NCBI RefSeq assembly: GCF_000196555.1
Contig: NC_015067.1
Coordinates: 150,001-182,000, forward strand
Reading direction: 5' to 3'
Origin: Bifidobacterium longum subsp. longum JCM 1217
GTDB taxonomy: Bacteria > Actinomycetota > Actinomycetes > Actinomycetales > Bifidobacteriaceae
Length of the DNA: 32,000 nucleotides
Each line of letters begins with the position of its first letter. Position 1 is the stretch's first letter. Under the pieces are notes generated by a model. That model worked only from the letters and a program-made list of their open reading frames with translations. It ran no database searches and was not told the DNA's origin. Positions 5,006 through 30,355 of this stretch are shown here, in pieces. The translations under genes were made by a program, and so were the position numbers.

Positions 5006-5722
5006 ATGAAGATCAAGAAATCTCTCGCCGCGCTGACTGCAACCGTGAGCATTATGGCACTTGCAACCGGTTGCAGTTCGAGCGGTTCGTCAGGCGTCGT
5101 CGACACCCAGGCCGACAAGGGCCTGGCCGTCATGGGCGACACCATCACCTACGACCCCAACCACTTGGTCAACGACGGCCAGCCCATCGAACTGGGCTAC
5201 TGGTCCTGGGGCGACGAAAGCACTGACCCGGTGATCTCCATGCTCCACGAGTACGAGAAGATCCACCCGAACGTCACCTTCAAGATCTCGCAGGTGGCTT
5301 GGAGCGACTACTGGGTCAAGACCCCGCTCTCGCTCAAGGGCAACAAGAACGCCCCCGTGCTGTTCAACGTCCACAACTCCGAGGATGCCCTGCTCCGCCC
5401 GCACGCCGTCCGCCTCGACGGCGCCAGCGACTGGCGCATCTTCCACCAGGTGGTGCTGCCGATGAGCCGCAATTCCATCGCCGCGCTCGCCATCTTCACC
5501 TTCCTGTGGAACTGGGAGGACTACCTCTGGCCGTTCCTCATGATCACCGATGACGACAAGCAGCTGTTGTCGGTGGGCCTCAAGATGTTCTCCGGCCAGT
5601 ACGGCACCGATTACGGCGGACTGTTCGCCGCCACCTCCGTGACCATCATCCCGGTGGTCATCGTCTACCTGGTGTTCCAGAAGCAGTTCATCGCCGGCAT
5701 CGCCACCGGCTCTGGCAAGTAA
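5006..5722 (+). pseudogene. In-frame deletion chimera: sugar ABC solute-binding lipoprotein N-terminus fused to MalG-type permease C-terminus
   Basis: Residues 1 to about 130 are a lipoprotein signal (LATGC lipobox) plus a family-1 SBP N-terminal lobe (IELGYWSWGD...YEKIHPNVTFKI...WSDYW). Residues from about 134 to 238 are the last roughly 100 aa of a binding-protein-dependent permease (RLDGASDWRIFHQVVLPMS...WNWEDYLWPFLMI...FQKQFIAGIATGSGK). The junction is near 5396..5407. Confidence 0.7.
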
Positions 5723-5833: not shown

Positions 5834-8371
5834 ATGGCACAGTCACCACAACTCAAGCAGTCGTCTCCGACCTCGCCCGATCCGCAGGACTTCCGCCTCG
5901 ACGCCACGCCGGCCATGCGCGCCGACAATGTGGTGTCCGGCGAGCACTGGCGCATCGGACTCATCACCGATTCGCTCGTGCGATTCGAATGGTCCGATTC
6001 CGGCGTATTCGAGAACCGCCCGACCCAGACCGTCCTGAACCGCGATTTCGGTAGCCCAGTCGAACGCCGCGTCACCGAGCGTGACGGCCGCGTCATCATC
6101 GACACCGCGGCCCTGACCATCGTCTACGACCAGCAGCCGTTCAGCAAGGAAGGCCTGAGCGTGGTCGTCAAAGGCGTGGCCGACACCCAGTTCAACACCT
6201 GGCATTACGGCGACGCCCAGCGCGGCAACCTCAAAGGCACCGCCCGCACGCTGGACGAGGCGGACGGCGCCATCGAGCTTGACAACGGCGTGATCTCGCG
6301 CGACGGCTGGGCCGTCATCGACGATTCCGCCGCCAACATCATCATCGAAACCGACACGGTGAACGGCAAGGCGAACCCGTTCGGCACCTGGGTATCCCCG
6401 CGCGCCACCGCCGAAACGGACTTGTACTTCTTCGGCTATGGCCACCGCTACATCGAGGCCGTACGCGACTTCTATCGCCTGACCGGCCCCACGCCGCTCC
6501 TGCCGCGCTTCGCCATGGGCAACTGGTGGAGCCGCTACTACCGGTACACGCAGGACGGCTATCTGGCCCTGATGGACCGCTTCAAGCGCGAGGGCATCCC
6601 GTTCACCACCTCCGTGATCGACATGGACTGGCATCGCGTGGACGACGTGGACCCGAAGTACGGTTCCGGCTGGACCGGCTACTCGTGGAACCGCGAACTG
6701 TTCCCCGACCCGCCGGCCTTCCTCGCCGACCTGCACCGGCGCGGCCTGCGCACCACACTGAACGTCCACCCGCGCGACGGCGTGCGCGCGTTCGAGGACG
6801 CCTACCCCGAAGTCGCCAAGCGCGTCGGCATCGACCCGGCCACCGAGGAGAACGTGGAATTCGACCTCACCAACCCGGACTTCGTGGACGCCTATTTCGA
6901 CATGCACCACCGCATGGAGGCCGAAGGCGTCGACTTCTGGTGGCTGGACTGGCAGCAGGGCGGCGTGACCCGCGAGAAAGGTCTCGACCCGCTGTGGATG
7001 CTCAACCACATGCACTACCTCGACTCAGGGCGCGGCGGCAACTGGCCGCTCACCTTCTCCCGGTACGCCGGCCCCGGCTCCCACCGCTACCCGGTCGGCT
7101 TCTCCGGAGACACGATCGTGACCTGGGAATCGCTCGCCTTCCAGCCGCAGTTCACCGCCACCGCTTCCAACATCGGGTATGGCTGGTGGAGCCACGACAT
7201 CGGCGGCCACATGTTCGGCTACCGCAACGAAGAGCTGGAGGCCCGCTGGTACCAGCTCGGCGCGTTCAGCCCGATCAACCGACTGCATTCGTCCAACTCG
7301 CCGTTCTCCGGCAAGGAGCCGTGGAACTTCAACCGTGACGTGAGCGCCGCGATGGTGGACGCGCTGCGTCTGCGCCACGCGATGATGCCGTACTTGTACA
7401 CCATGAACTACCGTGCCGCCGAAGCCGGCCGTCCGCTGGTCGAGCCGATGTACTGGCAGAACCCGGATACGCCGGACGCCTACGAGGTGCCGGACGAGTT
7501 CCGCTTCGGCACCGAGCTCGTGGTCGCGCCGATCGTCTCCCCGGACGATGCCGCCGCCTGCCGCGGCCGCGCCGACGCCTGGCTGCCGCAGGGGGAGTGG
7601 TTCGACTTCTTCGACGGCCGCCGATACGTCTCATCCGACGCCGCCGGCCGCCGACTGGAGGTCTGGCGCTCGCTCGACCGCACGCCGGTGTTCGCCAAGG
7701 CCGGCGCGATCGTGCCGTTGCAGGACGTCGCGGAATCCGGCGAAGCGGTCAACTCTATCGCCAACCCGCAGGCCCTGCGCGTGCTGGTGTTCCCTGGTGC
7801 CGACGGCTCGTTCGTCATGCGCGAGGATCGCGGCACGTGGGGCGCCACCAGCGCCGACACCGCGATAGCGTTCACGTGGGGCGGGGCCGATGCGTCGCCC
7901 AGCGCCTTCACCGTCGCGCCGGTTACCGGCGATACGTCCGCCGTACCCGAGTCGCGCGACTGGACGGTCGTGTTCCGCGGCGTCGCGCCGGTCGATGCGG
8001 CCAGCGGCGTGCGTGCATGGTCCGGCGAGGCTCCGGTCGAGGCAACGGTGGCGTACGACGAGGCGACCATGAGCCTGACCGTGTCCGTCACCGGCATCAG
8101 CTCGGCTGCCAGTCTGCGCATCGAGATTCCCGGCGGTCTGCGCATCGCCGACAATCCGGTCGAATCGGACGCGATGGACCTACTGCTGCACGCCCAGATG
8201 CTCTACCGCACCAAGGAGCTCGCGCTGCAGGCGGTCCACAAGCTCGGCATCGGCGCGATCGGCGCCCTGCGCACCATGAACCGTGGTCCGCGCTACGCCA
8301 ACGATTTCTGGATCACCGACATGCCCGATGCGGTGGCCGGCGCGCTCGAAGAAATTCTGCTGCGCAGCTGA
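5834..8371 (+). CDS. GH31 family alpha-glucosidase / alpha-xylosidase
   Basis: The long ORF carries GH31-type blocks (VIDMDWH, GVDFWWLDWQQGG, GFSGDT, WSHDIGGH, RWYQLGAFSPINRLHS). I prefer the ATG at 5834, 6 nt after the GAAGGGG RBS, over the GTG at 5807 used by the ORF track. Confidence 0.85.
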   Translation: MAQSPQLKQSSPTSPDPQDFRLDATPAMRADNVVSGEHWRIGLITDSLVRFEWSDSGVFENRPTQTVLNRDFGSPVERRVTERDGRVIIDTAALTIVYDQQPFSKEGLSVVVKGVADTQFNTWHYGDAQRGNLKGTARTLDEADGAIELDNGVISRDGWAVIDDSAANIIIETDTVNGKANPFGTWVSPRATAETDLYFFGYGHRYIEAVRDFYRLTGPTPLLPRFAMGNWWSRYYRYTQDGYLALMDRFKREGIPFTTSVIDMDWHRVDDVDPKYGSGWTGYSWNRELFPDPPAFLADLHRRGLRTTLNVHPRDGVRAFEDAYPEVAKRVGIDPATEENVEFDLTNPDFVDAYFDMHHRMEAEGVDFWWLDWQQGGVTREKGLDPLWMLNHMHYLDSGRGGNWPLTFSRYAGPGSHRYPVGFSGDTIVTWESLAFQPQFTATASNIGYGWWSHDIGGHMFGYRNEELEARWYQLGAFSPINRLHSSNSPFSGKEPWNFNRDVSAAMVDALRLRHAMMPYLYTMNYRAAEAGRPLVEPMYWQNPDTPDAYEVPDEFRFGTELVVAPIVSPDDAAACRGRADAWLPQGEWFDFFDGRRYVSSDAAGRRLEVWRSLDRTPVFAKAGAIVPLQDVAESGEAVNSIANPQALRVLVFPGADGSFVMREDRGTWGATSADTAIAFTWGGADASPSAFTVAPVTGDTSAVPESRDWTVVFRGVAPVDAASGVRAWSGEAPVEATVAYDEATMSLTVSVTGISSAASLRIEIPGGLRIADNPVESDAMDLLLHAQMLYRTKELALQAVHKLGIGAIGALRTMNRGPRYANDFWITDMPDAVAGALEEILLRS

Positions 8372-8523: not shown

Positions 8524-8637
8524 ATGCACAAGGTGAAACAGCACAAGGGCGTCGCGGTGGCCGCCGCAGTCTGCGCGGTCGCGATGGCGGCCTCGCTCGC
8601 GACCCACGCCGGCGCGGCCGGGGACCGGCGTTATTGA
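8524..8637 (+). pseudogene. Orphan 37-codon ORF that is only a secretion signal peptide (remnant of a secreted protein gene)
   Basis: A GGAAAGGAA RBS precedes the ATG at 8524. The product MHKVKQHKGVAVAAAVCAVAMAASLATHAGAAGDRRY has the n-h-c architecture of a signal peptide. The ORF stops inside repeat unit 1 of the 17-bp array. Confidence 0.3.
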
Positions 8638-8722
8638 CTGGCTGGCGTTATCGAGTGATTGGCGGTATCAATTAGCCGGCGTTATTGATGAGCCGGTGTT
8701 GTCGATTAGCCAGCGTTATCGA
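8621..8722. repeat. Phased tandem array, 6 x 17 bp, consensus TKRGCCGGCGTTATYGA
   Basis: The units read directly: gggaccggcgttattga / ctggctggcgttatcga / gtgattggcggtatcaa / ttagccggcgttattga / tgagccggtgttgtcga / ttagccagcgttatcga. The period is exactly 17, which is not a multiple of 3. Confidence 0.85.
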
Positions 8723-9352: not shown

Positions 9353-11232
<1,880 letters not shown>

Positions 11233-13727: not shown

Positions 13728-13816
13728 AAACCGATTCGTAAGGGGTGCTTTAGGCTGAGACGGTATGTGCCGAACCCTTCGAACCTGTGAGCTAACACTC
13801 GCGTAGGGAATGCGAC
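13728..13816 (+). promoter_or_regulatory. TPP (THI-box) riboswitch aptamer
   Basis: All invariant blocks are present in the right order and spacing: GGGGTGC (13742..13748), GCTGAGA (13754..13760), a P3 hairpin CGG-TATGTG-CCG, AACCC (13773..13777), GAACCTG (13781..13787), a P5 stem GAG/CTC, and GCGTAGGGAA (13801..13810). P1 pairs about 13732..13737 with 13808..13814. Confidence 0.85.
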
Positions 13817-13874
13817 GGTTGAACTCCTCTGTTCGGCTCGGCATCCCATATGCGCGTTGAGAGAGAGGAAGCGT

Positions 13875-20469: not shown

Positions 20470-20497
20470 GCATGAGATGGGCGTGAAACAACAGCGT

Positions 20498-20561
20498 GGT
20501 TATCCACATTTGTCGTGGACGACATGCCGGGGTGTGGATAACTCAGCAAGCTAGAACCACA
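20498..20561 (+). repeat. 64-bp conserved element, copy A (upstream of tadZ), with two inverted perfect DnaA-box 9-mers
   Basis: GGTTATCCACATTTGTCGTGGACGACATGCCGGGGTGTGGATAACTCAGCAAGCTAGAACCACA. TTATCCACA is at 20500..20508 and TGTGGATAA at 20533..20541. It is 59/64 identical to copy B. Confidence 0.9.
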
Positions 20562-20610
20562 ATGGTCGATTCGTGTTGAGCATTGAACTCGGACACGTTT
20601 CAATCGGCTT

Positions 20611-21561
20611 ATGAATAGCAACACCACACCCCGCGTGGCGCGTAGGATCACCTCGCCAGCGGTAGCACCTCCGGGCATTCCGCTGCCCACGGACGATGCG
20701 CCGATTCCAGCGCATCGCTACTACACTCCGCCGCCCAGGCCGTTGGCCTCATGCGAACGGCAGAGATCGGGCGAGGCTCCGGCACTCGCCCTAACTACAG
20801 ACACCAGCTTCCATAACATTGTGACGATGACGTCAGGTCATGGAGGCGTGGGGTTGAGTGTCATGGCTTCCATGCTTGCATGGACATTGGCGAGACGTGA
20901 ACACAGCTGCGCTCTCATAGACGCTGATTTCGTGGCCGGATGCCTTGACCTGCTGCTGGGTGTAGAACGAGAGCCGGGTTTACGATTCAGCCAAGTCGAC
21001 GCACCCCTCGGCCGCATCGAGGGCGATGCGATGAACCATGAGCTGATGATGTGGGAGGGTGTGCGAGTACTTCCCTATGACCCTTGGAGCGCGCGCCAGC
21101 CTGACTGGTGGGAAGTTCAAGCGGCCATTCGAGCCTTGGCGGAAACGAACGACGTTGTCATCGTAGATGCCGGTCAGGGTGGACTCATTGAGACCGTACC
21201 CGATCTGCGCAGTGGCATGCAGGTGATTGCCGCGGAATTGTCGGTGATGGGGCTGGCCAGAGCCAAGTCGCACCGGTCCAGACTGGATTCATGGGGCTGT
21301 GAAGCGCCACATATCGTCGGCGTGGAACCACGTGGCGCTCCACGTGGGAGAGGCCACGTGGGTATTGGTGAGGCGCAGGACTATTTGACTGCCACGGTAT
21401 TGGGGCCTGTCAAACCAAGTGTCAATCTGTGTGGAGACGTACTGGAAGGCCTCGGCATCAGATCGGTGACCAAAGGCAGCCGCAAAGCCGTGAGCTTGCT
21501 TGCCGATCTTGTCGAGCAGGCCATTCGCCCGGTTTCGGGAGCTTCTTGCAAGGACCGGTGA
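20611..21561 (+). CDS. tadZ: TadZ/CpaE-like ParA-family ATPase of the Tad pilus locus
   Basis: A deviant Walker-A-like region TSGHGGVGLSVMASMLAWTLA...ALIDADF, as the first gene of a tad cluster. Confidence 0.75.
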   Translation: MNSNTTPRVARRITSPAVAPPGIPLPTDDAPIPAHRYYTPPPRPLASCERQRSGEAPALALTTDTSFHNIVTMTSGHGGVGLSVMASMLAWTLARREHSCALIDADFVAGCLDLLLGVEREPGLRFSQVDAPLGRIEGDAMNHELMMWEGVRVLPYDPWSARQPDWWEVQAAIRALAETNDVVIVDAGQGGLIETVPDLRSGMQVIAAELSVMGLARAKSHRSRLDSWGCEAPHIVGVEPRGAPRGRGHVGIGEAQDYLTATVLGPVKPSVNLCGDVLEGLGIRSVTKGSRKAVSLLADLVEQAIRPVSGASCKDR

Positions 21562-21567
21562 TGCGGT

Positions 21568-22635
21568 ATGGCTGCCGTAATCACTCGGGCTGATGAGCCC
21601 GGCGCAGTGCCCAGAACTGTGTTCTTCGGTCTATTGAATGATGTGGCATCCGACCCGCAGGTTACCGATCTGGCGGTGACCTGTGATGGCCGCGTTTGGG
21701 CGGACCGCGGCAACGGCATGCGAGAAACAGTATTGCGTGTGCCGTTTCGCTCGCCGCAAGTAGTTCGAGAATACGCCGTCCAACTGTGCGCGCAGCTTGG
21801 GCGCAGACTGGATGATGCCTGCCCGATAGCGGACGCCGCCAGTCCAGACGGCATCCGCGTGCATGCGGTGATTGCCCCATTGGTGCCACAAGGTGCCGCA
21901 ATCTCCATACGGTTCCCTGACAGGACCATGGCATCGTTGCGACATCTGAGCCAATTAGGTGTATTCCCGGCTGCTTGGCTGCCGATGTTCGTGGGACTGG
22001 TGCGCAGACATGCCACAGTGCTGATTACCGGCGGAACAGGCGTGGGCAAGACCACCTTGCTCAAGGCGCTGCTGGCGCAATGCGATGTGAACGAGCGCAT
22101 CGTCACCGTAGAGGAAGTTCGTGAACTGGGGGAACTGGGGCGTGGCGATCATGTGTCGTTGGTAACGCGCGAGGCGAATGTGGAGGGCGTCGGAGCCATA
22201 AGTCTGACGGACTTGGTCAAAGCGACGTTGCGAATGCGCCCCGACCGCGTGGTGCTGGGCGAATGCCGTGGCGCGGAAATCGTCGACCTATTGCGCGCGT
22301 TCAATTCTGGTCATCACGGTGGCATGACCACTGTGCATGCGGACGGCGTGAACCGAGTACCGTCCAGGCTGATTTCGCTTGGATTACTCGCCGGAGTCAG
22401 TCCACAGGCGTTGGCCATGCTGGCGGCAGGCGCTTTCGACGCGGTGGTGCATTTGGAGCGAGTGAACGGACAGCGGCGTATCACGCAGATCGGCGAACTG
22501 CGTGTAGCACATGGTGAACTGGCAGGAACACCGCTGGCGGTATGGAATGGCTGCCATCCTCCTCGGTATGCCGCCGAATGGGGGCACTTCATTGAACGAT
22601 GGGGCATCGTTCCCGGGCCGAGTGGTGGTGGGTGA
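21568..22635 (+). CDS. tadA: TadA/CpaF secretion ATPase
   Basis: Walker A ITGGTGVGKTTLLKAL, Walker B and Asp box (RPDRVVLGECRG), and His box (GHHGGMTTVHA). Confidence 0.9.
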   Translation: MAAVITRADEPGAVPRTVFFGLLNDVASDPQVTDLAVTCDGRVWADRGNGMRETVLRVPFRSPQVVREYAVQLCAQLGRRLDDACPIADAASPDGIRVHAVIAPLVPQGAAISIRFPDRTMASLRHLSQLGVFPAAWLPMFVGLVRRHATVLITGGTGVGKTTLLKALLAQCDVNERIVTVEEVRELGELGRGDHVSLVTREANVEGVGAISLTDLVKATLRMRPDRVVLGECRGAEIVDLLRAFNSGHHGGMTTVHADGVNRVPSRLISLGLLAGVSPQALAMLAAGAFDAVVHLERVNGQRRITQIGELRVAHGELAGTPLAVWNGCHPPRYAAEWGHFIERWGIVPGPSGGG

Positions 22636-23291
22636 TGATGTGGTGTGCTGTTCTGGTGGCGCTCGCCGTGCTGATATGGCCGGGGAACAAGTCCGGGAGG
22701 CTGTATCGGCTGGCTTACCGCGGGCGTGCGGTCGATTCCGCAGCCATAAACGAACCTCGATATGCCGGCTCACCTCGCGTGGGCGTTGCGCAGGTGATTA
22801 CGTCCGCCATCGCGCGATTGCGAGGTGGCGGCACATTGGTTGAAGCATTCGAGGAACAATCCAGCAGACGCTTCGCCACTCAGCGCATTACTGTGGAACG
22901 GCTCATAACGGTGTTCGAACAGCGGCGTCTGCCCGACGAATCACCAGCGCAGGTACTTGAAGCTGCACGCGGGGTCACCGCCGCAGCGGTTTTGAGCGAT
23001 GAGCTCGGTTGCCAAGCAGTGCCATGTCTGGAAGCGGTATTGACTGCTTACCGGCAGATGAGGCTGATGCAGAACCTGCGATCGCAAGCATGTGCCGTTC
23101 CTAAAGCCACTGTGGGGCTGCTGAGCGCGCTTCCGGCCGTCACTGTGGCATTGGGCGAGCTTCTGGGAGCTAGACCATTGGCGTTCTTGCTTGGATCGCC
23201 ACGCGGTGTGGTCTGCTTGGTATTAGGGGGATGTTGTTATGCTGCCGGCTTGGCATGGATGCGGGCATTGTTGAAAGGCAGCGGATTATGA
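22635..23291 (+). CDS. tadB: TadB-like type II secretion system F-family membrane protein
   Basis: The ATG overlaps the tadA TGA (TGATG). It has an N-terminal TM segment, a cytoplasmic domain and C-terminal TM helices, and the position matches the canonical tad order. Confidence 0.7.
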   Translation: MMWCAVLVALAVLIWPGNKSGRLYRLAYRGRAVDSAAINEPRYAGSPRVGVAQVITSAIARLRGGGTLVEAFEEQSSRRFATQRITVERLITVFEQRRLPDESPAQVLEAARGVTAAAVLSDELGCQAVPCLEAVLTAYRQMRLMQNLRSQACAVPKATVGLLSALPAVTVALGELLGARPLAFLLGSPRGVVCLVLGGCCYAAGLAWMRALLKGSGL

Positions 23292-23890
23292 GTACGGTGT
23301 GGGTACACGCCGCGGCAGGCTGTGCGGCGATCGCTAGTTGGCTGTATAAGGCTCCGTCTCGTCATGACAGCCGCTTGCCGGGCGAGGAACCGGTCGTAGC
23401 GCATGATTGCGGGTCGTCATGGACCATACTCATATTGCGTATGTTGCAGGTGTCCTTGCGTCAGGGCTCCTCGATTCCCCGGGCGCTTGACATGGTGGGC
23501 AAAGCCGTCGGCGGCGACTGCGGCGCTCGCATGAGCGAGGTCGGGAGCTCCCTGGCCAGAGGGGTTCCCTGGGCTGATGCGTGGCATGCCGCTATGGCTG
23601 TTCAGCATGAGGGTGCGCCAGCTGATAGTTCATCCGGAAAACGTACCAGCAGAACGCAACGAGATCTTGGCCTGCTGCAATCGGCTTTGGAATCGTCATG
23701 GACGCATGGCGATATGCCTGGCGTGCGCCTCGAATCCGCCATTGAACAGCTGGACCGTGACGAGCGTGCCGCCATCGAACGGAATGCCGCGAAGCTGTCG
23801 GTAAAGCTACTGATGCCTACAGGGCTATGTTTTCTGCCGGCATTCGTGCTGGTAGGAGTCATTCCGGCGATTGCGTCCTTCATGATGTGA
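23288..23890 (+). CDS. tadC: TadC-like type II secretion system F-family membrane protein
   Basis: The ATG overlaps the tadB stop (ATGA). The topology is similar to TadB (LLMPTGLCFLPAFVLVGVIPAIASF at the C-terminus). Confidence 0.7.
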   Translation: MSTVWVHAAAGCAAIASWLYKAPSRHDSRLPGEEPVVAHDCGSSWTILILRMLQVSLRQGSSIPRALDMVGKAVGGDCGARMSEVGSSLARGVPWADAWHAAMAVQHEGAPADSSSGKRTSRTQRDLGLLQSALESSWTHGDMPGVRLESAIEQLDRDERAAIERNAAKLSVKLLMPTGLCFLPAFVLVGVIPAIASFMM

Positions 23891-23961
23891 ATATAGGCGT
23901 GAACTGAGTGCGCTTAGGGTGAATCTTGTTGTATTGCTCGGTATTGCACTTGGCTGCGTTT

Positions 23962-24025
23962 GGTTATCCACATTGGTGGTGGACGACACGTCGGGGTGTG
24001 GATAACTCGGCAAGCTAGAACCACA
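23962..24025 (+). repeat. 64-bp conserved element, copy B (upstream of flp), with two inverted perfect DnaA-box 9-mers
   Basis: GGTTATCCACATTGGTGGTGGACGACACGTCGGGGTGTGGATAACTCGGCAAGCTAGAACCACA. TTATCCACA is at 23964..23972 and TGTGGATAA at 23997..24005. Confidence 0.9.
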
Positions 24026-24174
24026 TACCCCGTTTTCCCTGGTGCATGAAGCGTTGATAGTCCACAGTGGTATGCACCCCGCGTCAACCCGGCGCGGGGG
24101 CCAACCACTCACACACGCATGGGGAAGGTGCGAAGCCACTGCGCAGCTTCCCCTCCTTACCGAAAGGAACGCCA

Positions 24175-24462
24175 ATGAATACCCCTATCCCCGTCATCGT
24201 CGACGGGCAGGCCGGCATCTTTGCGCACAGCAAGGCTCGTGTGGCCACGCTGAACGCCAAGGCGAAAGAACGGCTATGCCTCATGGACGCACGCATCCGC
24301 ACCCTCATGGCTGAGCCCGAAGAAGGCGCGGCCACTGCGGAATACGCAGTCGTACTCGTTGCGGCTACAGGCTTTGCGGCGGTGCTGGTCGCCATCCTGA
24401 AGTCGGATGCCATCAAGACGTTGCTGACCAACATCATCAAACAGGCTCTGAAAGTCGGGTGA
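24175..24462 (+). CDS. flp: Flp-family prepilin
   Basis: The Flp processing motif G|ATAEYAVVLVAATGFAAVLVAIL. The ATG at 24175 follows a GAAAGGAA RBS. An internal ATG at 24283 (MDARIRTLMAEPEEGAATAEY) would give a more typical 59-aa prepilin. Confidence 0.8.
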   Translation: MNTPIPVIVDGQAGIFAHSKARVATLNAKAKERLCLMDARIRTLMAEPEEGAATAEYAVVLVAATGFAAVLVAILKSDAIKTLLTNIIKQALKVG

Positions 24463-24845
24463 CAGCCATGAAGACCATGACATGCCGGTGGCGGCTCGCC
24501 AGACTGCCGCCAGACCTATGCACGGGATCGGCCACCGCCGAATTCGCAATCGTATTGCCCAGCATTATCGCCATCGCCGGGCTGATATTGGCAATAGGAC
24601 GTGTGGTCATCGTTTCCATGGACTGTCAAAGTGCCGCGGCAGCGGCTGCACGCGAGTTTGTGGTTACCGGTGACGAATCATCCGCGCGCAGCATAGCTGC
24701 GGACGTTGCCGGGGGAGAGCCCCACGTCAGCATTGCCCACGACGGCCAATCGACGAGTGTGACGGTCGAATGTTCGGTATTGCCCGGTCCGCTGGATGTA
24801 ACTCCAACGCGGGTTACCGGCAACGCTACGGCGATAAGCCAATAA
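24459..24845 (+). CDS. tadE: TadE-like pseudopilin
   Basis: The prepilin-like N-terminus GSATAEFAIVLPSIIAIAGLILAIG. The start is ambiguous: GTG at 24459 overlapping the flp stop, or ATG at 24468 or 24477. Confidence 0.75.
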   Translation: MTAMKTMTCRWRLARLPPDLCTGSATAEFAIVLPSIIAIAGLILAIGRVVIVSMDCQSAAAAAAREFVVTGDESSARSIAADVAGGEPHVSIAHDGQSTSVTVECSVLPGPLDVTPTRVTGNATAISQ

Positions 24846-24885
24846 CGGTCGGCTGGCTGGGCGGCCGCAACAGAAAGGAACTGCG

Positions 24886-25272
24886 GTGCAGGGAATGCGT
24901 TATGAGGAGGGATCGGGCACGATGGCCGGAGCCATGCTGGTTATGGTGGTGGGCATTGCGCTCGCGGTGGCGGCAAGTGTGGGCAACCTCATGATCTGCC
25001 AGAACCGAGCGCGTTCCCTCGCCGACCTTATCGCCTTTGACGCCGCGTATGCGCTGTGGCATGCGGATATCGGTGATCCATGTGCGCTCGCCGCCAACAT
25101 GGCTGAAGCGAATGGTGTAGTTTTGGGCTCCTGCTCCGTGCGGGATGAAGACGTGTTGGTAACCATCAAGGTGGAAACCATGGTCCTGGTGGCATCATCC
25201 GTGGAGCGGATGGCTCGGGCCGGACCGGTGAGTTGTACGGAAGGAGACAATTATCACAATAATGGACCGTAA
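24886..25272 (+). CDS. tadF: TadF / Rv3654c-type TadE-like protein
   Basis: GSGTMAGAMLVMVVGIALAVAASVG is a hydrophobic N-terminus typical of the actinobacterial TadE-like family. The GTG start lies 6 nt after AAAGGAA, and this is the last gene of the tad cluster. Confidence 0.65.
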   Translation: MQGMRYEEGSGTMAGAMLVMVVGIALAVAASVGNLMICQNRARSLADLIAFDAAYALWHADIGDPCALAANMAEANGVVLGSCSVRDEDVLVTIKVETMVLVASSVERMARAGPVSCTEGDNYHNNGP

Positions 25273-25320: not shown

Positions 25321-26451
25321 ATGAGCGAGAGTGAACGCAACGAGCGCCGTCGCGTGGTGGCCATGGTGGGCAACCCCACTTCCGATAAAGGCCGTGGCGC
25401 TAAGGTGGACGCGCAGGTATTGGGTCTGCTGGAGGAAGCCGGCCGTGCCCATAACTTTGATGTCATCGACATCACCGGCACGAGTTTCGACGATTCCCTG
25501 AATCAGGCGCGTGAACGCGCGCACGAGTACGACTATCTCGTAGTGGTCGGTGGCGACGGCATGATCGCACTTGGAGCGAACGCCGTGGGCTGCAGTGGCA
25601 AGCCGTTGGGCATCGTGGCCACGGGGTCGGGCAACGATTTCGCACGAGGACTGAAGCTGCCGGTCAACCGTATCGAAACCGCAGTGGAAGGTATCGTCGG
25701 TGCTATCGTGCGCGGATCACACATCGATGTGGACATGGGACGCGTGACCTCTTTGGACGGCGGCTATGCCGTGGATCCCTCCACTGGCGAGGAGTACGAG
25801 TACCAGGAGAGCAAGTCCGCCGAGCATCCGATTGACCGGTACTATGCGGGCATGCTGTCCTGTGGTCTTGACGCGAGCATCAACGACCGTGCGAATCATT
25901 CGCATCTGCCGACCGGCACCATGCGCTACTTTGCGGCGGTGCTGGTGGAGCTGACGCATATGAAGCGTTATGGTTACCACATCAAAGCCACATTGGCGGA
26001 CGGGACCACGGATGAACGAGACATCATCACACCATTGCTGACGATTGCGAATTCGAGGCATATCGGTGGCGGCATTGAGGTCTCGCCGTACTCCTGCTTC
26101 TCCGATGGATTGTTGGACCTGGTGTGGATGGACCACGTGCCGAACTTCGGCGAATGCGCGGTGGCCATTTCGAATGCCTATAACGGCAAGCTACTTGCTT
26201 CAAAGGTGTTCGGCTGGAAACGTATCCGTGAAATCGAAGTCACGCGGGCAACGGAAGGAGACGAGCCGCCGGTGCTGATGGCGGACGGCGAATATATCGG
26301 GCATTTGCCATTTAGGGTAGTGGCCGAGGACTGCGCGTTGCGCGTGCTAGTGCCGCCGGCCGTAGCCGCCCGTGAGGTGGATTCCCGACAGGAAGTGCTC
26401 AACGCCATTGCCCGAGATGGTCGCGATCCCGTGACCGGCCAGTTCGCGTGA
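25321..26451 (+). CDS. Diacylglycerol-kinase-family lipid kinase (YegS/BmrU type)
   Basis: The DAGK catalytic-domain motifs VVVGGDGM and PLGIVATGSGNDFARGL. Confidence 0.85.
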   Translation: MSESERNERRRVVAMVGNPTSDKGRGAKVDAQVLGLLEEAGRAHNFDVIDITGTSFDDSLNQARERAHEYDYLVVVGGDGMIALGANAVGCSGKPLGIVATGSGNDFARGLKLPVNRIETAVEGIVGAIVRGSHIDVDMGRVTSLDGGYAVDPSTGEEYEYQESKSAEHPIDRYYAGMLSCGLDASINDRANHSHLPTGTMRYFAAVLVELTHMKRYGYHIKATLADGTTDERDIITPLLTIANSRHIGGGIEVSPYSCFSDGLLDLVWMDHVPNFGECAVAISNAYNGKLLASKVFGWKRIREIEVTRATEGDEPPVLMADGEYIGHLPFRVVAEDCALRVLVPPAVAAREVDSRQEVLNAIARDGRDPVTGQFA

Positions 26452-26493
26452 CCCGATTATATTGGCTCCCCTCATTAGGCTGAGCCGTAAAGC

Positions 26494-26514
26494 AAACAGC
26501 CCAGTGGGCTGTTT
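26494..26514 (+). terminator. Hairpin downstream of the lipid kinase gene
   Basis: AAACAGCCC-AGT-GGGCTGTTT followed by GT. It could act bidirectionally, because the flanking genes converge. Confidence 0.5.
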
Positions 26515-26648
26515 GTAGGCGAGGGTTCGACGATAGTCGAACCAGAAGAAAGTCAGCCGTAGGCTGTCCGCAATTGCGGACGAGCTGGCCGCGAAGCGGA
26601 CTGAGAGGAGTGCGGGAGAGCGGTACCAGAGCCAATGGCCGTCAGACC

Positions 26649-27248
26649 TCAGACGACATAGCTTTCGATATGCAGCGTCTGCGCCATGACCTCTTTGATG
26701 GTTCGGTCGCTGATGTTCAGATGCGAGCGAATCAGCGAGATAAGCCCCACAATCAGTGTGAAGAACGTCTCATGGACGTTGGTGATTGGCAGGCCATGCA
26801 TCTGCTCGAAATCACGTACGGTGGTCTGGGCAATGTAGTCGGCAATACGGTCCGCCGCGCGGTCAATGAACTTGATATACAGTTCGGCGTTGCCGTCTTG
26901 GATCATACGGTTTGAGAAGGGGCTCTCGTCGGCGATCAGGGAGCGGAGCACATGCACGATGTCGTCTAATGCCTTGTTCACGTTGCCTGTTTCGCGCGCT
27001 TGGTTCCACTGCTTCAACGTGGTGAGGATTTCGTCGATGACGTTATCGAGTACTGCGTCAGCTACGGCTTCCTTGTCTTCGAAGTAGTGGTAGAACAGCG
27101 AACGCGTCATACCGACTTCGCTTGCGATGTCGGAAACGGTGATTTTGGAGAAGCCTTTTTCCAGACACACCTTGCGCGCGGCTTGCACGATGGCGTCGCG
27201 CCGGGCATCGCCGCGGGTGGGGCGTTTCTCGTCGAGGGTATCGCTCAT
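26649..27248 (-). CDS. TetR/AcrR-family transcriptional regulator
   Basis: The TetR HTH (GFSKITVSDIASEVGMTRSLFYHYFEDKE) in a 199-aa ORF. An AGGAGG RBS lies upstream. Confidence 0.9.
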   Translation of the reverse strand: MSDTLDEKRPTRGDARRDAIVQAARKVCLEKGFSKITVSDIASEVGMTRSLFYHYFEDKEAVADAVLDNVIDEILTTLKQWNQARETGNVNKALDDIVHVLRSLIADESPFSNRMIQDGNAELYIKFIDRAADRIADYIAQTTVRDFEQMHGLPITNVHETFFTLIVGLISLIRSHLNISDRTIKEVMAQTLHIESYVV

Positions 27249-27442
27249 GGGTGCCTCCTGACCACAACCGTTATTGACACTATGTTAATACAAAGAAAGC
27301 GGTTAATAACAATAAAAATGCGGTAACCGTTGTCAGGTGAATGTCGTTGGAATATAAAGAGTTTTCCGATTCGGCAACTATGAGCCCGGTTTATCTTGAC
27401 TTTTTATCGGTTAATTCTGAGGGCAAAGGTAGGTTAGTAGCT

Positions 27443-30355
27443 ATGGCACTTGCACTGTATCGTCGCTATCGTCCGGACACCTTCGAAGGGGTCATCGGCC
27501 AGGACCAAGTCACGGTCCCGCTGATGCGCGCCTTGGACGAGGGCAAGCTCACACATGCCTATCTGTTCTCAGGGCCGCGAGGCTGCGGCAAAACCAGCTC
27601 CGCGCGTATCCTGGCCCGTTGCGTCAACTGTGCCAAAGGGCCGACTTCCCACCCCTGCGGCGAATGCGAAAGCTGCAAGGACCTGGCCACCGGCGGTCCG
27701 GGTTCCATCGACGTGGTCGAAATCGATGCGGCCTCGCACAACGGTGTGGATGATGCTCGAGAATTGCGAGAACGCGCTGGTTTCGCCCCTGCGCGCGACC
27801 GCTATAAGATTTTCATTCTCGATGAGGCCCACATGGTCACGCAGCAGGGCTTCAATGCGCTGCTTAAAATCGTTGAAGAGCCGCCTGAACATGTGATGTT
27901 CATCTTCGCCACCACCGAACCAGACAAGGTGATCGGCACCATCCGTTCGCGCACCCACCACTATCCGTTCCGTCTGGTGCCGCAGGAAGTCATGGGTCCC
28001 TACCTGGAGACGATCTGCGACAAGGAAGGCATCAAGCCCGAGCCCGGTGTGCTGAAACTGGCGATGCGCGCCGGTGGCGGCTCCATGCGAGATACCCTGT
28101 CCGTGCTTGACCAGCTGATGGTTGGTTCGGTCGAAGGCGTTATCACCCATGATGCCGCTGTAGCCCTGCTCGGCTTCACGCCGGAGGCACTGATCGGTGA
28201 GGCCGTGGATGCGGTAATCGATCACAACGGCGAAGCCCTGTACGGCGTTATCCAGAAAGTCGTGGTCGGCGGATTCGATCCGAGACGATTCGTCGAAGAC
28301 CTACTGGCTCGTGTGCGTGATCTGCTGGTGCTTACGTTGGCCGGGGACCGTGCGGAATCCGTGCTGTCCGACACGGCTGAGGCCGAGGATATGGACGATC
28401 TGCACCGCCAAGCCAAGGCGCTGGGACTGGGCGCACTGACCGCAATGGCAGACATCATCAACACTACGTTGGGTGCCATGACCGGAGCCATTTCTCCGCG
28501 TATGCGCTTGGAACTGCTGGCCGCGCGATTGTTGGCCGGCAGTGAATCAGGCTTTGCAACAGCCGCTCCCGCGCCAGCTTCTTCTGGTATGCCGCCTGCG
28601 GCTGCTTCTTCGACTTCGACTACGCCAGCCGCTTCCGGTATGGGTGCCAGTGGTTTTGCCGGCGCATCGCGAGGCGGGTTTGCCGGAGCCTCACATGGCG
28701 GATTCTCCGGTGCTGCACGCAACCAGCAAGCAGCCGCGCCTCAGAGCACCGCTTCCCATGAATCTGTTGGAGGCAATGGCCCTGTCAACGGCCCGGTCAG
28801 CGACCGACCCGCGGGCTCTCTGTCTGTGCAACCTGCTGTAGCAACTGCTGCTGCCGGTGCCGCTCCTGCCGCCAATGCCGGGTGGGGCGCGCCCGCCGCG
28901 TCGCCGGCCGTCCCGGCTCAACCGGTGACCTCGCCTGCGGCATCGGATAATCGGTCCATCGACGAGAAGTGGGATGCAGCCGTCGCCGCTTTGCCGGAAA
29001 CCATTCGTGAATATGTGTCACGAGACAAGGTGCCGACCGTAAAATTCGGCCCCAACCGTAAGGGTCTGCCTTGCTTGTCGATGACGTTCGACAAGTCGCT
29101 GAGCCAGCACGCTTTCGCCTTGGCCGTGGATAACAGCGGTAAGAAGGCGGCGGCCGTGGTGATGGATGCCGTGCGCAACGAGTTCGGCGCCAATGCGGTT
29201 ATTGCACCTTCTGCGGTCGCGGCGAATGGCGAGCGAGTCGAATCCGTCAAACGTATGAGCCCGGAGCAATTGGCCAAGGTCAAGCAGCAGATTGCCATGG
29301 CCAAGGCTGGATTGGCCGCGTCGAGTTTGGGCGCGAGCCTGGGCATTCATATGGGGAGCGAGACGAAAGCTCCGAAGCCGACTGCAACAGGCCAAGCCGA
29401 GGACGCAGACGACAGCCATCGAGCCGGACAATCCAGTGCATCCACGGCAGCGAAGAACTGGAGTGACGATGACCCTTGGGCCAAGCCGGCCGTAAGCAAC
29501 GCTTCGCCGCAATCTGCAGACGGGTTCGCGCCTAACGAGCCCGCTGCTACGCCTGCGCCCGAAGAGCATCACAAGAAGCATGTTGCGGTTCCGGACATCA
29601 GTGACGGTGTTGATCCGTGGGCCGCTCCGGCTGCTCCTGTTGCACCCACTGCGTCCGTTGCGTCCGCTGGACCCACTGGACAGTCCACTGGGCAGCCAGC
29701 CACCGCATCTTCCGTTACGGCAGTTGCCGGCGCGAGCGACGATCCATGGAATCAGACGCAGTCTCAGGCCGCGGTCTCACCGGCGTCGCAACCGGCCGAA
29801 GCCGACCCGTGGAACCAGCCATATCAGCAGTCTCCTCACGATGATCCGTGGAATCAACCGCAGGGGAACCATGCTCAGGCGGCTCCGCAGCCAGGAGACG
29901 ACCCGTGGAATCAGCCTCAGTCCCAGACTCCGGCTTCTTCGGTTCCTCAGACAGTGTCGGGCAATATGTCGGGCGATGACCCGTGGAACCAGCCCCAATC
30001 GGTTCCGCAGCCGGCTGCCGGCGATGACCCGTGGAATCAACCGCAGGCAGTTCCACAATCGGCTCCGCAGGCCACCCCGCACGGTGACCCGTGGAATCAA
30101 CCGCAACCCGCACAGCCGACCCCGAATGCCGACCCGTGGAATAGCCAGCCCCAGCCCCAGCCGAAACCACAACCGCAAGTCGCGGCCGAGGATGACGAAT
30201 ACTCGATGAGCGACCAGTCGCTCGGCGAGGCGACGGCCATGAATCTCGACGATCTGAAAAAGCTATTCGAGGTCAAAAAAGTCGAGCAATTCGCGGCAGA
30301 TGATCCGAAGAACCCCAAGAACATCCAGCCTGCCAAGAAGCACTCGGATGAATAA
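27443..30355 (+). CDS. dnaX: DNA polymerase III subunit gamma/tau
   Basis: The canonical N-terminus starts at the ATG at 27443 (MALALYRRYRPDTFEGVIGQ). Also present: Walker A GPRGCGKTS, a Zn module CxxCxxC, DEAH-type Walker B (ILDEAHM) and sensor motifs. The C-terminal half is long and low-complexity. The ORF-track start at 27341 is unlikely. Confidence 0.95.
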   Translation: MALALYRRYRPDTFEGVIGQDQVTVPLMRALDEGKLTHAYLFSGPRGCGKTSSARILARCVNCAKGPTSHPCGECESCKDLATGGPGSIDVVEIDAASHNGVDDARELRERAGFAPARDRYKIFILDEAHMVTQQGFNALLKIVEEPPEHVMFIFATTEPDKVIGTIRSRTHHYPFRLVPQEVMGPYLETICDKEGIKPEPGVLKLAMRAGGGSMRDTLSVLDQLMVGSVEGVITHDAAVALLGFTPEALIGEAVDAVIDHNGEALYGVIQKVVVGGFDPRRFVEDLLARVRDLLVLTLAGDRAESVLSDTAEAEDMDDLHRQAKALGLGALTAMADIINTTLGAMTGAISPRMRLELLAARLLAGSESGFATAAPAPASSGMPPAAASSTSTTPAASGMGASGFAGASRGGFAGASHGGFSGAARNQQAAAPQSTASHESVGGNGPVNGPVSDRPAGSLSVQPAVATAAAGAAPAANAGWGAPAASPAVPAQPVTSPAASDNRSIDEKWDAAVAALPETIREYVSRDKVPTVKFGPNRKGLPCLSMTFDKSLSQHAFALAVDNSGKKAAAVVMDAVRNEFGANAVIAPSAVAANGERVESVKRMSPEQLAKVKQQIAMAKAGLAASSLGASLGIHMGSETKAPKPTATGQAEDADDSHRAGQSSASTAAKNWSDDDPWAKPAVSNASPQSADGFAPNEPAATPAPEEHHKKHVAVPDISDGVDPWAAPAAPVAPTASVASAGPTGQSTGQPATASSVTAVAGASDDPWNQTQSQAAVSPASQPAEADPWNQPYQQSPHDDPWNQPQGNHAQAAPQPGDDPWNQPQSQTPASSVPQTVSGNMSGDDPWNQPQSVPQPAAGDDPWNQPQAVPQSAPQATPHGDPWNQPQPAQPTPNADPWNSQPQPQPKPQPQVAAEDDEYSMSDQSLGEATAMNLDDLKKLFEVKKVEQFAADDPKNPKNIQPAKKHSDE
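29465..30150 (+). repeat. Coding tandem array of ten D-P-W motifs within the dnaX 3' region
   Basis: The protein reads DDDPWAKP, GVDPWAAP, SDDPWNQTQ, EADPWNQPY, HDDPWNQPQ, GDDPWNQPQ (three times), HGDPWNQPQ and NADPWNSQ. The DNA unit GA(Y)GACCCGTGGAATCA(R)CC recurs about every 50-90 nt. Confidence 0.9.

Follow-up and report, generated by a model that had tools for sequence, protein, structure and literature searches.

A conserved promoter-upstream module probably links Tad-pilus and DNA-uptake genes in bifidobacteria

Main

A 64-bp repeat stands before both Tad-pilus operons of Bifidobacterium longum subsp. longum JCM 1217. We conclude that it is probably the upstream control module (about −118 to −50) of a family of co-regulated promoters, which together would form a competence-like regulon of Tad-pilus and DNA-uptake genes. 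The same module precedes tadZABC, flp-tadEF, comEA-comEC-holA, the gene of an FtsK/SpoIIIE-like ATPase and further genes, and thereby marks a Tad-pilus and DNA-uptake regulon. In the literature that could be searched we found no description of the module, and searches for a tad operator, for a link to DnaA or for competence in bifidobacteria gave nothing relevant.

Results

Two copies of the repeat precede the Tad operons

The window, that is, the whole 32,000-nt stretch analysed here (NC_015067.1, positions 150,001 to 182,000), carries two Tad transcription units, for which Pfam backs a ParA-like TadZ, a T2SSE TadA, a T2SSF TadC, a DUF4244 Flp and TadE. The Flp protein is identical to the one encoded on CP002286, a B. 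longum genome, and the closest named matches of TadC carry the label B. longum. A repeat search of the window returned a two-copy family at 20497–20561 and 23961–24025, 65 nt long and 92% identical. In a 64-nt frame the copies differ by five mismatches, in agreement with the 59/64 identity claimed in an earlier, sequence-only reading of this DNA. That reading had also counted four perfect TTATCCACA 9-mers, which we recovered at 20500 (+), 20533 (−), 23964 (+) and 23997 (−), and the gap of 24 nt between the inverted boxes of each copy was confirmed. Its distances hold as well: the tadZ ATG (20611) follows the end of copy A by 50 nt, and the flp ATG (24175) follows that of copy B by 150 nt. Its estimate of fewer than one chance occurrence of the perfect 9-mer is matched by shuffled sequences, which contain 0.12 on average, none of 100 shuffles reaching four. 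Contrary to that reading, the repeat is not alone among non-coding repeats of the window, since a tandem array of 17-nt units occupies 8625–8720. The features of both copies and of the adjoining operons are as follows.

20500..20508, + strand: copy A box 1 (distal), a perfect TTATCCACA, inverted relative to box 3; orientation differs among species
20514..20529, + strand: copy A box 2, degenerate CGTGGACGA (TGTGGATGA elsewhere), overlapping the conserved block GACATGCCG (genus consensus GACAYGCCG)
20533..20542, + strand: copy A box 3 (proximal), TGTGGATAAC, a perfect DnaA-box 9-mer on the minus strand
20543..20551, + strand: copy A spacer TCAGCAAGC, species-specific, near-identical between same-genome copies
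20552..20561, + strand: copy A proximal block TAGAACCACA (TTCGACCACA in most species), predicted at about −59 to −50
20576..20581, + strand: predicted tadZ −35, TTGAGC, 17 nt upstream of the −10, placed by conserved geometry
20599..20604, + strand: predicted tadZ −10, TTCAAT, 6 nt before the ATG at 20611; TTTCAATCG is kept in all species
20611..23890, + strand: tadZ-tadA-tadB-tadC operon (ParA-like, T2SSE, tadB without assignment, T2SSF)
23964..23972, + strand: copy B box 1 (distal), a perfect TTATCCACA
23978..23993, + strand: copy B box 2, degenerate GGTGGACGA, overlapping the block GACACGTCG
23997..24006, + strand: copy B box 3 (proximal), TGTGGATAAC
24007..24025, + strand: copy B spacer TCGGCAAGC and proximal block TAGAACCACA
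24040..24068, + strand: predicted flp core promoter, −35-like TGGTGC at 24040–24045 and −10 CACAGT at 24063–24068, placed by conserved geometry
24175..25272, + strand: flp (DUF4244)-tadE-tadF operon

The module is conserved across the Bifidobacteriaceae

The element lies upstream of both tadZ and flp in all eight Bifidobacteriaceae species examined. These sites were obtained from their gene context and free of any search pattern, the tad loci (~10 kb each) having been retrieved through TadC homology. A perfect TTATCCACA/TGTGGATAA together with an anchored, invariant CCACA is present in 16 of the 16 tadZ and flp upstream regions, and no further perfect box occurs elsewhere in those ~10-kb loci.

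The core architecture reads GACACGCCG-N3-4-TGTGGATAAC-N8-9-TTCGA/TAGAA-CCACA. The box 9-mer, TGTGGATAA(C), is followed by a spacer of 8–9 bp and then by (T)TCGA/TAGAA-CCACA at about −59 to −50, and GACAYGCCG usually stands ahead of the core. Box 3 is invariant among Bifidobacterium copies, at a predicted position of about −78 to −69. Tad promoters contain two or three boxes, 10 and 20 bp apart, with the one or two extra 9-mers in either orientation; the comEA, M23 and other promoters contain a single box. In Pseudoscardovia and Bombiscardovia the 9-mer is found at different distances or orientations, and an AT-rich comEA locus, possibly Gardnerella-like (L253), keeps CCACA and the promoter geometry with a degenerate 9-mer.

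In a plain DnaA site, conservation would be expected to stop at the boxes and the spacer to vary freely. Here it includes GACAYGCCG, the flanking C and TTCGA/TCCGA-CCACA, and the spacer is homogenised per genome, with an identity of 0.85 between same-genome copies versus 0.60 between genomes.

Predicted core promoters lie downstream of the module

A weak housekeeping-type promoter (TTGnnn/TGGnnn, 17–18 nt, nAnnnT) is found 15–43 nt downstream of the element. The nAnnnT hexamer is positioned at a fixed 37–38 nt 3' of CCACA, and from this geometry it follows that the module spans about −118 to −50 relative to the predicted start. The ATG lies 50–53 nt after CCACA at tadZ, comEA, the FtsK-like gene, the SAF gene and the sites U135, U167 and U178. 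At tadZ, comEA and others the hexamer ends 6 nt ahead of the ATG, which implies leaderless mRNAs. Both the leaderless starts and the −35/−10 assignment are predictions from conserved geometry. For flp, the predicted start near 24075 would leave a leader of ~100 nt with a Shine-Dalgarno sequence ahead of the ATG at 24175.

The tadZ hexamer TTCAAT does not have the usual A at its second position, an observation that counts against its assignment as a promoter element. A fragment of a B. breve start-site table, which lists some genes only, includes the flanking Bbr_0131 and Bbr_0141 and none of Bbr_0132–0140, nor any tad gene; as far as that fragment goes, the gap would agree with a regulon not expressed in culture.

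The module also precedes comEA-comEC and other genes

The sequence-only reading had offered, as one possibility, an operator shared by the two Tad units. The evidence supports a conserved cis-regulatory site with boxes that behave as protein sites, whereas the implied restriction to Tad genes fell away, as the module also stands before comEA-comEC and others. When metagenomes were scanned with the core pattern of the genus, 143 sites at 116 loci were obtained. Most frequent among the downstream genes were flp (57 sites) and tadZ (44, to which about 8 on truncated contigs can be added); comEA-comEC-holA followed about 16 sites (Pfam HHH_3, Competence, DNA_pol3_delta) and an M23 peptidase gene 7, the remainder lying ahead of FtsK/SpoIIIE-like, CpaB/SAF-like, SSB-like and uncharacterised genes. 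Because the pattern forced three blocks, their conservation in the metagenome set is partly by construction, and the gene-context and protein-derived sets are the sole unbiased ones. We had considered the unassigned metagenome sites as possible noise and rejected this, as most are truncated tadZ sites or genuine non-Tad members.

Loci of comEA retrieved by protein homology rather than by pattern carry the full module, both at locus L252 and in Bifidobacterium sp. ESL0732 (CP113920). The comEA ATG set by the gene caller lies 51 nt after CCACA in L252 and likewise in CP113920. The three comEA loci retrieved by homology come from species other than B. longum. On a B. longum-like contig of 228 kb, a native third copy with the 33-nt core TGTGGATAACTCGGCAAGCTAGAACCACATACC precedes an FtsK/SpoIIIE-like gene, so that a limit of two copies per genome is wrong. 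Four non-Tad sites (L189, L153, L219 and L241) are chimeric assemblies joined via the common module, and count as evidence for further copies, not for native flanks. A 'hairpin' after the comEA sites was considered as a small-RNA terminator and rejected, as it flanks the predicted −10 and the start codon. Within the clade, pilus and comEA/comEC genes share one upstream motif, a feature of competence-regulon elements, with tadZ, flp, comEA-comEC-holA and FtsK-like, SSB-like, CpaB-like and M23 genes as members.

A proposed mechanism

We infer that the 9-mers are recognised by one or several sequence-specific proteins, each box by a monomer, a mode of binding that would explain why the distal boxes vary in orientation and number. 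From their upstream site, these proteins would switch the weak promoters on or off jointly, with transcription of tadZ, comEA and several others beginning at the ATG itself and that of flp giving the leader predicted above (~100 nt). DnaA would be expected to occupy the perfect boxes and is, to our knowledge, the only protein with this 9-mer specificity. The conserved GACAYGCCG and CCACA blocks and the species-specific spacer suggest a second, regulon-specific factor that reads them, added to DnaA or acting instead of it. Pfam and NCBIfam searches returned no DNA-binding domain in or beside the regulon operons. A TetR gene downstream of the tad locus (26649–27248) was considered as well; it is missing from that place in B. 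moukalabense, Bombiscardovia and Pseudoscardovia, and is thus no candidate for a general regulator.

Discussion

Which protein reads the module can be argued in two ways. A dedicated regulator, activator or repressor, might read all of the ~29–42 bp, with the DnaA-box match coincidental or tolerated and DnaA without a regulatory role; we regard this as a serious candidate that falls somewhat short of probable. It would account for the conserved sequence well past the 9-mer (GACAYGCCG, the flanking C, TTCGA/TCCGA before CCACA) and for the proximal block TCGACCACA, which is itself conserved in spite of three mismatches to the DnaA consensus. The spacer identities within and between genomes (0.85 and 0.60) form the pattern that co-evolution with a diverging factor would give, activator sites typically lie where the module does, at −50 to −90, and the competence regulons of other phyla have dedicated regulators (PMC8467076). 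Against such a regulator stand the regulon operons and their neighbours, which offer no candidate gene, and the tolerated variants (TTGTCCACA, TGTGGATGA and TGTGGATAG, either orientation, 10-bp phasing), which match DnaA-box arrays. Moreover, DnaA would bind perfect boxes anyway, and the 9-mer is in use at related origins. That DnaA itself regulates, bound at the strong 9-mer, oligomerising onto weaker CCACA-type sites and coupling pili and uptake to the state of replication or growth, extends the main idea of the sequence-only reading and is in our judgement rather unlikely. All 16 gene-context copies match the consensus at nine of nine positions, as do the comEA and FtsK-like sites derived from proteins, and box number and orientation are flexible, as at origins. 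The 9-mer also clusters in the origin regions of relatives, with seven perfect boxes flanking dnaA on both sides in Alloscardovia criceti and six between parA and gidB in B. samirii. When a genome collection was scanned with the generic pattern GTTATCCACA-N15-30-TGTGGATAAC, 120 loci from many phyla were returned, none with tad genes, and at least 31 of these inverted-box matches in other bacteria adjoin dnaA or dnaN, a sign of what the bare architecture usually marks. DnaA is, furthermore, a transcription factor in several bacteria. DnaA alone, however, leaves over GACAYGCCG, the fixed geometry, the non-consensus yet conserved TCGA-CCACA and the genome-homogenised spacer. A site centre near −73 is unusual for DnaA control, the comEA promoter with a degenerate box still has the remaining architecture, and our literature searches turned up no competence regulon under DnaA control. 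In a bolder proposal, bifidobacteria have a hidden programme of natural competence with DnaA as its master switch. Its perfect boxes, ~70 bp upstream of predicted leaderless promoters, would make the expression of the gut-colonisation Tad pilus, of ComEA/ComEC, of an FtsK-like translocase and of an SSB-like protein depend on replication or growth status, and the adhesion pilus would double as a DNA-uptake pilus. This proposal is slightly more doubtful again.

The sequence-only reading had pointed to a weak promoter-like pair within the element, TGGATA-N17-CACAAT. In such a core promoter box 3 would be the −35 and CCACA(A/T)T the −10, read by the housekeeping sigma factor or by an alternative, competence-type one. 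The spacing fits copy A, the distance from box 3 to CCACA is rigid genus-wide in Bifidobacterium (13–15 nt), and competence regulons of Firmicutes use alternative sigma factors (PMC8467076). We nevertheless consider a core promoter at this place very unlikely. The final two bases of the supposed −10 occur as AT, TA, AC, GG, TT, TG, TC and GA, so that the key final T, the sixth base, is not conserved and varies freely, and a strict scan for sigma-70-type promoters found no site at the element. CCACA keeps its place in Pseudoscardovia and Bombiscardovia even though box 3 is shifted or inverted there, and the TTGnnn-17/18-nAnnnT pair downstream is better conserved and ends 6 nt before independently called start codons. 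A transcribed 5'-leader stem-loop, with GTTATCCACA paired to TGTGGATAAC, had been offered as well, and in B. longum a stem of 10–13 bp is possible between the arms. The left box, however, changes orientation among species: of the 12 Bifidobacterium copies aligned, five have it as a direct repeat and one more lacks it, and in those copies the stem cannot form. The folding energy is ordinary (z = −1.6 and −0.7), and the 77.5% pairing across the 12 copies equals that of shuffles (248/500). The 3' arm is invariant, without covariation or compensatory change, an Rfam search gave no match and transcription is predicted to begin only past the element; the stem-loop reading is already effectively refuted. 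Hardly more credible is a dispersed, MITE-like mobile repeat or a by-product of gene conversion that has no regulatory role. Several near-identical copies per genome, enough to produce chimeric metagenome assemblies, and spacers homogenised within genomes are what such a repeat would show. The copies, however, occupy orthologous positions before the same genes despite fully diverged flanks, keep a single orientation and a fixed distance to the start codon, and are conserved only in boxes and blocks. The downstream genes are coherent in function (pilus, ComEA/ComEC, SSB-like, FtsK-like), and the element does not have the features that define a MITE.

A control module shared by co-regulated promoters is the reading that we regard as probable. 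Tad pili are, as far as is known, the best established host-colonisation factor of bifidobacteria, on in the gut and off in culture. The conserved promoter module connects their two operons with comEA-comEC and other DNA-handling genes, a new link. It implies a coordinated competence-like programme, in which DNA might be taken up with the help of the Tad pilus, as it is in Micrococcus luteus, and it turns the control of tad genes and of competence in Actinobacteria into directly testable questions. Bifidobacteria are probiotic and notoriously hard to transform, and in the literature searched no natural transformation has been reported for them; whether activation of the regulon might render them naturally transformable can likewise be tested. 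Were DnaA the factor, replication control would be coupled to horizontal gene transfer in a new way.

The module shares with known DnaA-box operators, such as those of dnaA autoregulation and the B. subtilis DnaA regulon, the exact TTATCCACA consensus, extra boxes in either direction and one-mismatch variants. It differs from them in its distance of about 70 bp to the predicted start further downstream, where theirs overlap the promoter, in being part of a longer conserved module of fixed geometry, and in its set of pilus and DNA-uptake genes, which we found reported as a DnaA regulon in no organism. In Caulobacter crescentus, CtrA controls the Cpa/Tad pili and also binds the replication origin, with the motif TTAA-N7-TTAA. 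CtrA differs in protein family and motif and has no known comEA/comEC link; should DnaA be the factor in bifidobacteria, the two cases would be parallel in concept.

With the competence elements of other bacteria (the streptococcal cin-box/com-box of sigma-X, the ComK boxes of B. subtilis and the gammaproteobacterial CRP-S sites of Sxy/TfoX), the module has in common that one short motif stands ahead of pilus, comEA/comEC and accessory genes, so that the whole uptake machinery would be turned on together. As with ComK boxes, its place is upstream of the −35, and extra copies can occur at helical-turn spacing. It bears no sequence resemblance to the cin-box TACGAATA, to the ComK motif AAAA-N5-TTTT or to the CRP-S motif TGCGA-N6-TCGCA, as these are generally given. 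Unlike the cin-box, it is not located at the −10, and the pilus concerned is a Tad/Flp pilus, not a Com or type IVa pilus.

The closest likeness in gene content is to M. luteus, which is naturally transformed via Tad pili and ComEA/ComEC (PMC4322843), and in which an FtsK/SpoIIIE ATPase and a CpaB/SAF gene influence com-gene expression (PMC8467076). The competence regulator of Actinobacteria was stated in 2026 to be not known, and neither a common promoter motif nor a regulator has been reported for M. luteus (PMC12849477), in which it differs from the bifidobacterial system described here. The two systems belong to one phylum and consist of the same parts: a Flp/Tad pilus of the DUF4244 type, ComEA/ComEC, an FtsK/SpoIIIE ATPase and CpaB/SAF, all of them competence-linked (PMC4322843, PMC8467076).

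The element and its setting

The 64-bp element is, on sequence evidence, one copy of an upstream promoter module that is conserved in Bifidobacterium and serves a predicted Tad-pilus and DNA-uptake regulon there. In the window, a repeat search returned it as a two-copy, 65-nt family with 92% identity (20497–20561 and 23961–24025), matching the 64-nt frame of the sequence-only reading, in which the copies upstream of tadZ (copy A) and flp (copy B) agree at 59 of 64 positions. The perfect DnaA-box 9-mer TTATCCACA occurs four times (20500 and 23964, forward; 20533 and 23997, reverse), where 0.12 are expected; none of 100 dinucleotide-preserving shuffles of the window gave four. Pfam supports the neighbouring genes as originally named, and the Flp protein is identical to that encoded on CP002286; adjacent hits carry the label Bifidobacterium longum.

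20611–21561: TadZ, ParA-like; then TadA (T2SSE), TadB and TadC (T2SSF)
24175–24462: Flp, DUF4244-type; then TadE and TadF
3′ of the tad genes: diacylglycerol-kinase-like (DAGK-like) gene, TetR gene, dnaX

The tad locus and dnaX–recR are syntenic across Bifidobacteriaceae (window 25321–30355; loci L121–L133). They are direct neighbours in Bombiscardovia and Pseudoscardovia, with the DAGK-like and TetR genes between them in B. longum. Within dnaX, a repetitive linker of DNA polymerase III tau is probably encoded by five ~53-nt direct repeats that are degenerate and end in GACCCGTGGAATCAACCGCA (29810–30105). The element had been considered the only long non-coding repeat in the window; 8625–8720, apparently intergenic between large ORFs, also holds about six 17-nt units in tandem (consensus around CCGGCGTTATCGAnTnG), resembling an array of iterons or operators. 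A TPP riboswitch (RF00059) lies at 13731–13827, scoring 59.3 bits, above the gathering score.

Conservation across Bifidobacteriaceae

Via TadC homologues, we obtained ~10 kb around each tad locus of seven further species (B. callitrichidarum, B. saguini, B. moukalabense, a Logan contig, B. tibiigranuli, Bombiscardovia apis and Pseudoscardovia radai). Perfect TTATCCACA/TGTGGATAA boxes with a downstream CCACA were present in all 16 tadZ and flp upstream regions, the window's two included, and no perfect boxes were found elsewhere in those ~10-kb loci. Anchored on CCACA, the Bifidobacterium consensus comprises a distal box of variable orientation, followed by GTGGAyGACAyGCCG-N3-4-TGTGGATAAC, and continues from that 9-mer as TGTGGATAAC-N8-9-(TTCGA/TCCGA/TAGAA)CCACA. 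Sequence outside the module cannot be aligned between species, which marks the element as a phylogenetic footprint of a functional site. A recent duplication as the origin of the copies is ruled out on the same grounds.

The spacer and the bases before CCACA (the 14–15 nt between TGTGGATAA and CCACA) show 0.85 identity between the tadZ and flp copies within a genome and 0.60 between genomes (species-specific spacer at window 20543–20551 and 24007–24015; equivalents in L146–L248). The TGTGGATAA-to-CCACA stretch is unchanged in a third B. longum-like copy. This within-genome homogeneity points either to gene conversion or to a diverging protein with which the stretch co-evolves.

A 5′-leader RNA stem-loop, the other function initially proposed, is rejected. 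B. longum, B. saguini and B. callitrichidarum have the distal box inverted, forming the proposed stem. B. moukalabense, the Logan contig and B. tibiigranuli flp have it as a direct repeat (TGTGGATAAn-TGTGGATGA ... TGTGGATAAC), and B. tibiigranuli tadZ lacks it. On a 12-copy alignment, the B. longum stem gave 77.5% paired cells, a control-level value reached by 248 of 500 shuffles, and its invariant 3′ arm held no compensatory change. Folding energies were ordinary (z = −1.6 and −0.7), and Rfam returned no match at the element.

The module at DNA-uptake genes

We scanned a metagenome collection with the genus core ACAYGYCG-N3-4-TGTGGATAA-N13-16-CCACA, for which we estimated few chance matches, and found at least 143 sites in at least 116 loci. 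Downstream genes were assigned by tblastn and Pfam.

Genes downstream of module sites among the metagenome matches listed
flp: at least 57 sites
tadZ: at least 44 sites, plus about 8 on contigs ending before the gene
comEA-comEC-holA (HHH_3, Competence, DNA_pol3_delta): about 16 sites
M23 peptidase, then AMP-binding enzyme: at least 7 sites
Other sites: FtsK/SpoIIIE-like ATPase (Walker A GTTGSGKS, EssC/EccC-like), SAF/CpaB-like, SSB-like and several small genes without assigned role

As a control for pattern-based retrieval, comEA loci were reached via protein homology. The full module was present in one such locus (L252) and in Bifidobacterium sp. ESL0732 (finished genome, CP113920); in both, comEA was called from an ATG lying exactly 51 nt past CCACA. 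At comEA of an AT-rich lineage (L253), CCACA and the promoter geometry are kept and the 9-mer is degenerate. The idea of a common operator for both Tad units was right in spirit, the site being shared and conserved, but a Tad-only framing is too narrow.

Nor is the module limited to two copies per genome. A B. longum-like 228-kb contig (L250) carries TGTGGATAACTCGGCAAGCTAGAACCACATACC upstream of an FtsK-like gene, with 33 nt identical to copy B and CACGCT-GGAAGC-ATG at the standard distance after the module. Four chimeric metagenome contigs (L189, L153, L219 and L241), joined through the shared module, independently show that genomes hold further near-identical copies. They switch inside the module from a tad promoter to an FtsK-like, a 138-aa unassigned or an SSB-like gene; the repeat's length and identity suffice to mislead assemblers. 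The FtsK/SpoIIIE-like gene of L250 (7429–9253) is broken into three ORFs and its retrieved homologues were all short fragments; it may be a decaying pseudogene. Two WhiB-family regulator genes flank it (5282–5578 and, directly downstream, 9367–9645).

Predicted core promoter

The reading that put a −35/−10 pair inside the element is rejected: the last two bases of the supposed −10 (CACAAT/CACATA) vary (AT, TA, AC, GG, TT, TG, TC, GA), and a strict promoter scan of the element gave no site. Every site instead has a hexamer pair downstream. With the base after CCACA numbered 1, positions 14/15–19/20 hold a hexamer of the TTGnnn or TGGACA-like type and positions 38/39–43/44 an nAnnnT hexamer (CACAGT, GACACT, CACGCT, GATGCT, CATGCT, CACACT, TACCGT, TATCTT; TTCAAT in tadZ). 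An ATG follows at 50–53 in tadZ, comEA, the FtsK-like gene, the SAF gene and three genes without assigned role; no Shine–Dalgarno sequence precedes it in these genes, and in tadZ and comEA independent gene callers picked the same ATG. Leaderless mRNAs are common in Actinobacteria, and most simply the pattern reflects a weak promoter of housekeeping type that would yield them. The exception is flp, whose predicted leader is ~100 nt long and which has an ordinary ribosome-binding site. The conserved geometry predicts:

tadZ promoter: −35 at 20576–20581, −10 at 20599–20604, start at 20611
flp promoter: −35-like at 24040–24045, −10 at 24063–24068, start near 24075

From these coordinates, the element would span about −118 to −50 relative to the predicted start.

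Two local pairings were also observed. Window 20564–20571 (GGTCGATT) can pair with 20602–20609 (AATCGGCT) across the predicted tadZ −35/−10, and GCCCGA/TCGGGC at the equivalent place in B. callitrichidarum is a possible covariation. In comEA promoters, a 13–14-nt perfect inverted repeat, ATGCCCATGCATCC-N8-GGATGCATGGGCAT, surrounds the predicted −10 and includes the start codon (L252 522–557; L161 about 880–915; L185, L212, L255). Its arms covary between species (ATGTTCC/GGAAGCAT, ATGACTCC/GGAGTCAT); it may serve as an operator specific to comEA or, in read-through transcripts, fold as an RNA hairpin.

Candidate binding factors

The 9-mer is the exact DnaA consensus, and perfect boxes are expected to be DnaA-occupied in vivo. 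It clusters around dnaA in Alloscardovia criceti and between parA and gidB in B. samirii, and the generic inverted-box architecture mostly marks origins elsewhere, at least 31 of 120 matches adjoining dnaA or dnaN. Tad promoters hold 2–3 boxes, at 10- and 20-bp phasing and in either orientation (comEA, M23 and other non-Tad promoters hold one), and tolerate the single-mismatch variants that DnaA arrays typically show (TGTGGATGA, TGTGGATAG, TTGTCCACA). However, GACAYGCCG, a flanking C and the non-consensus TCGA-CCACA block are likewise under selection, which, with the species-specific spacer (0.85 within versus 0.60 between genomes), argues against DnaA as the sole factor; a site near −73 is also more typical of an activator than of DnaA repression. 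We consider DnaA rather unlikely as the main regulator and tentatively put forward a dedicated factor, at somewhat below even chances; the remaining probability falls to the two in combination. The module-bearing operons and the genes next to them yielded no regulator gene.

Box pairs also occur outside the family. Streptomyces and Kitasatospora share a conserved GTTATCCACA-N22-26-TGTGGATAAC element with a TTTTCCCC-containing spacer, away from dnaA/dnaN (L099 5358–5401, between a rhomboid protease gene and a DUF881 gene, and about 18 other loci, e.g. L017, L021, L030, L059, L067, L073, L094), which may be another non-origin actinobacterial DnaA-box site. In an uncultured Clostridiaceae contig (L101), a perfect inverted box pair lies ~1.9 kb from comEA/comEC homologues (4186–4389, 6314–6348), probably by coincidence.

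A putative competence regulon

A pilus together with ComEA and ComEC is the hallmark of natural-transformation machinery. Judged from the gene set, the module is a putative competence-regulon cis-element, of a kind not known from this phylum, and its core matches the DnaA box exactly; Tad-pilus and DNA-uptake genes of Bifidobacterium have this one promoter module in common. The proposed regulon model would comprise transcription from the predicted starts, factor binding, co-expression and transformation. Our literature search found no description of bifidobacterial competence or of a shared tad/com promoter motif. A partial B. breve start-site table from exponential growth contains the flanking Bbr_0131 and Bbr_0141 and, within that partial gene list, no entry for Bbr_0132–0140, which fits a regulon silent in culture.

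According to a 2026 paper, the actinobacterial competence regulatory cascade is still unidentified (PMC12849477). Transformation of Micrococcus luteus requires Tad/Flp pili and ComEA/ComEC (PMC4322843), and mutations in its FtsK/SpoIIIE ATPase, encoded beside the tad genes, or in CpaB/SAF alter com-gene expression (PMC8467076). M. luteus belongs to the same actinobacterial phylum, and its Tad/Flp, ComEA/ComEC, FtsK/SpoIIIE and CpaB/SAF parts match the module-bearing bifidobacterial genes.
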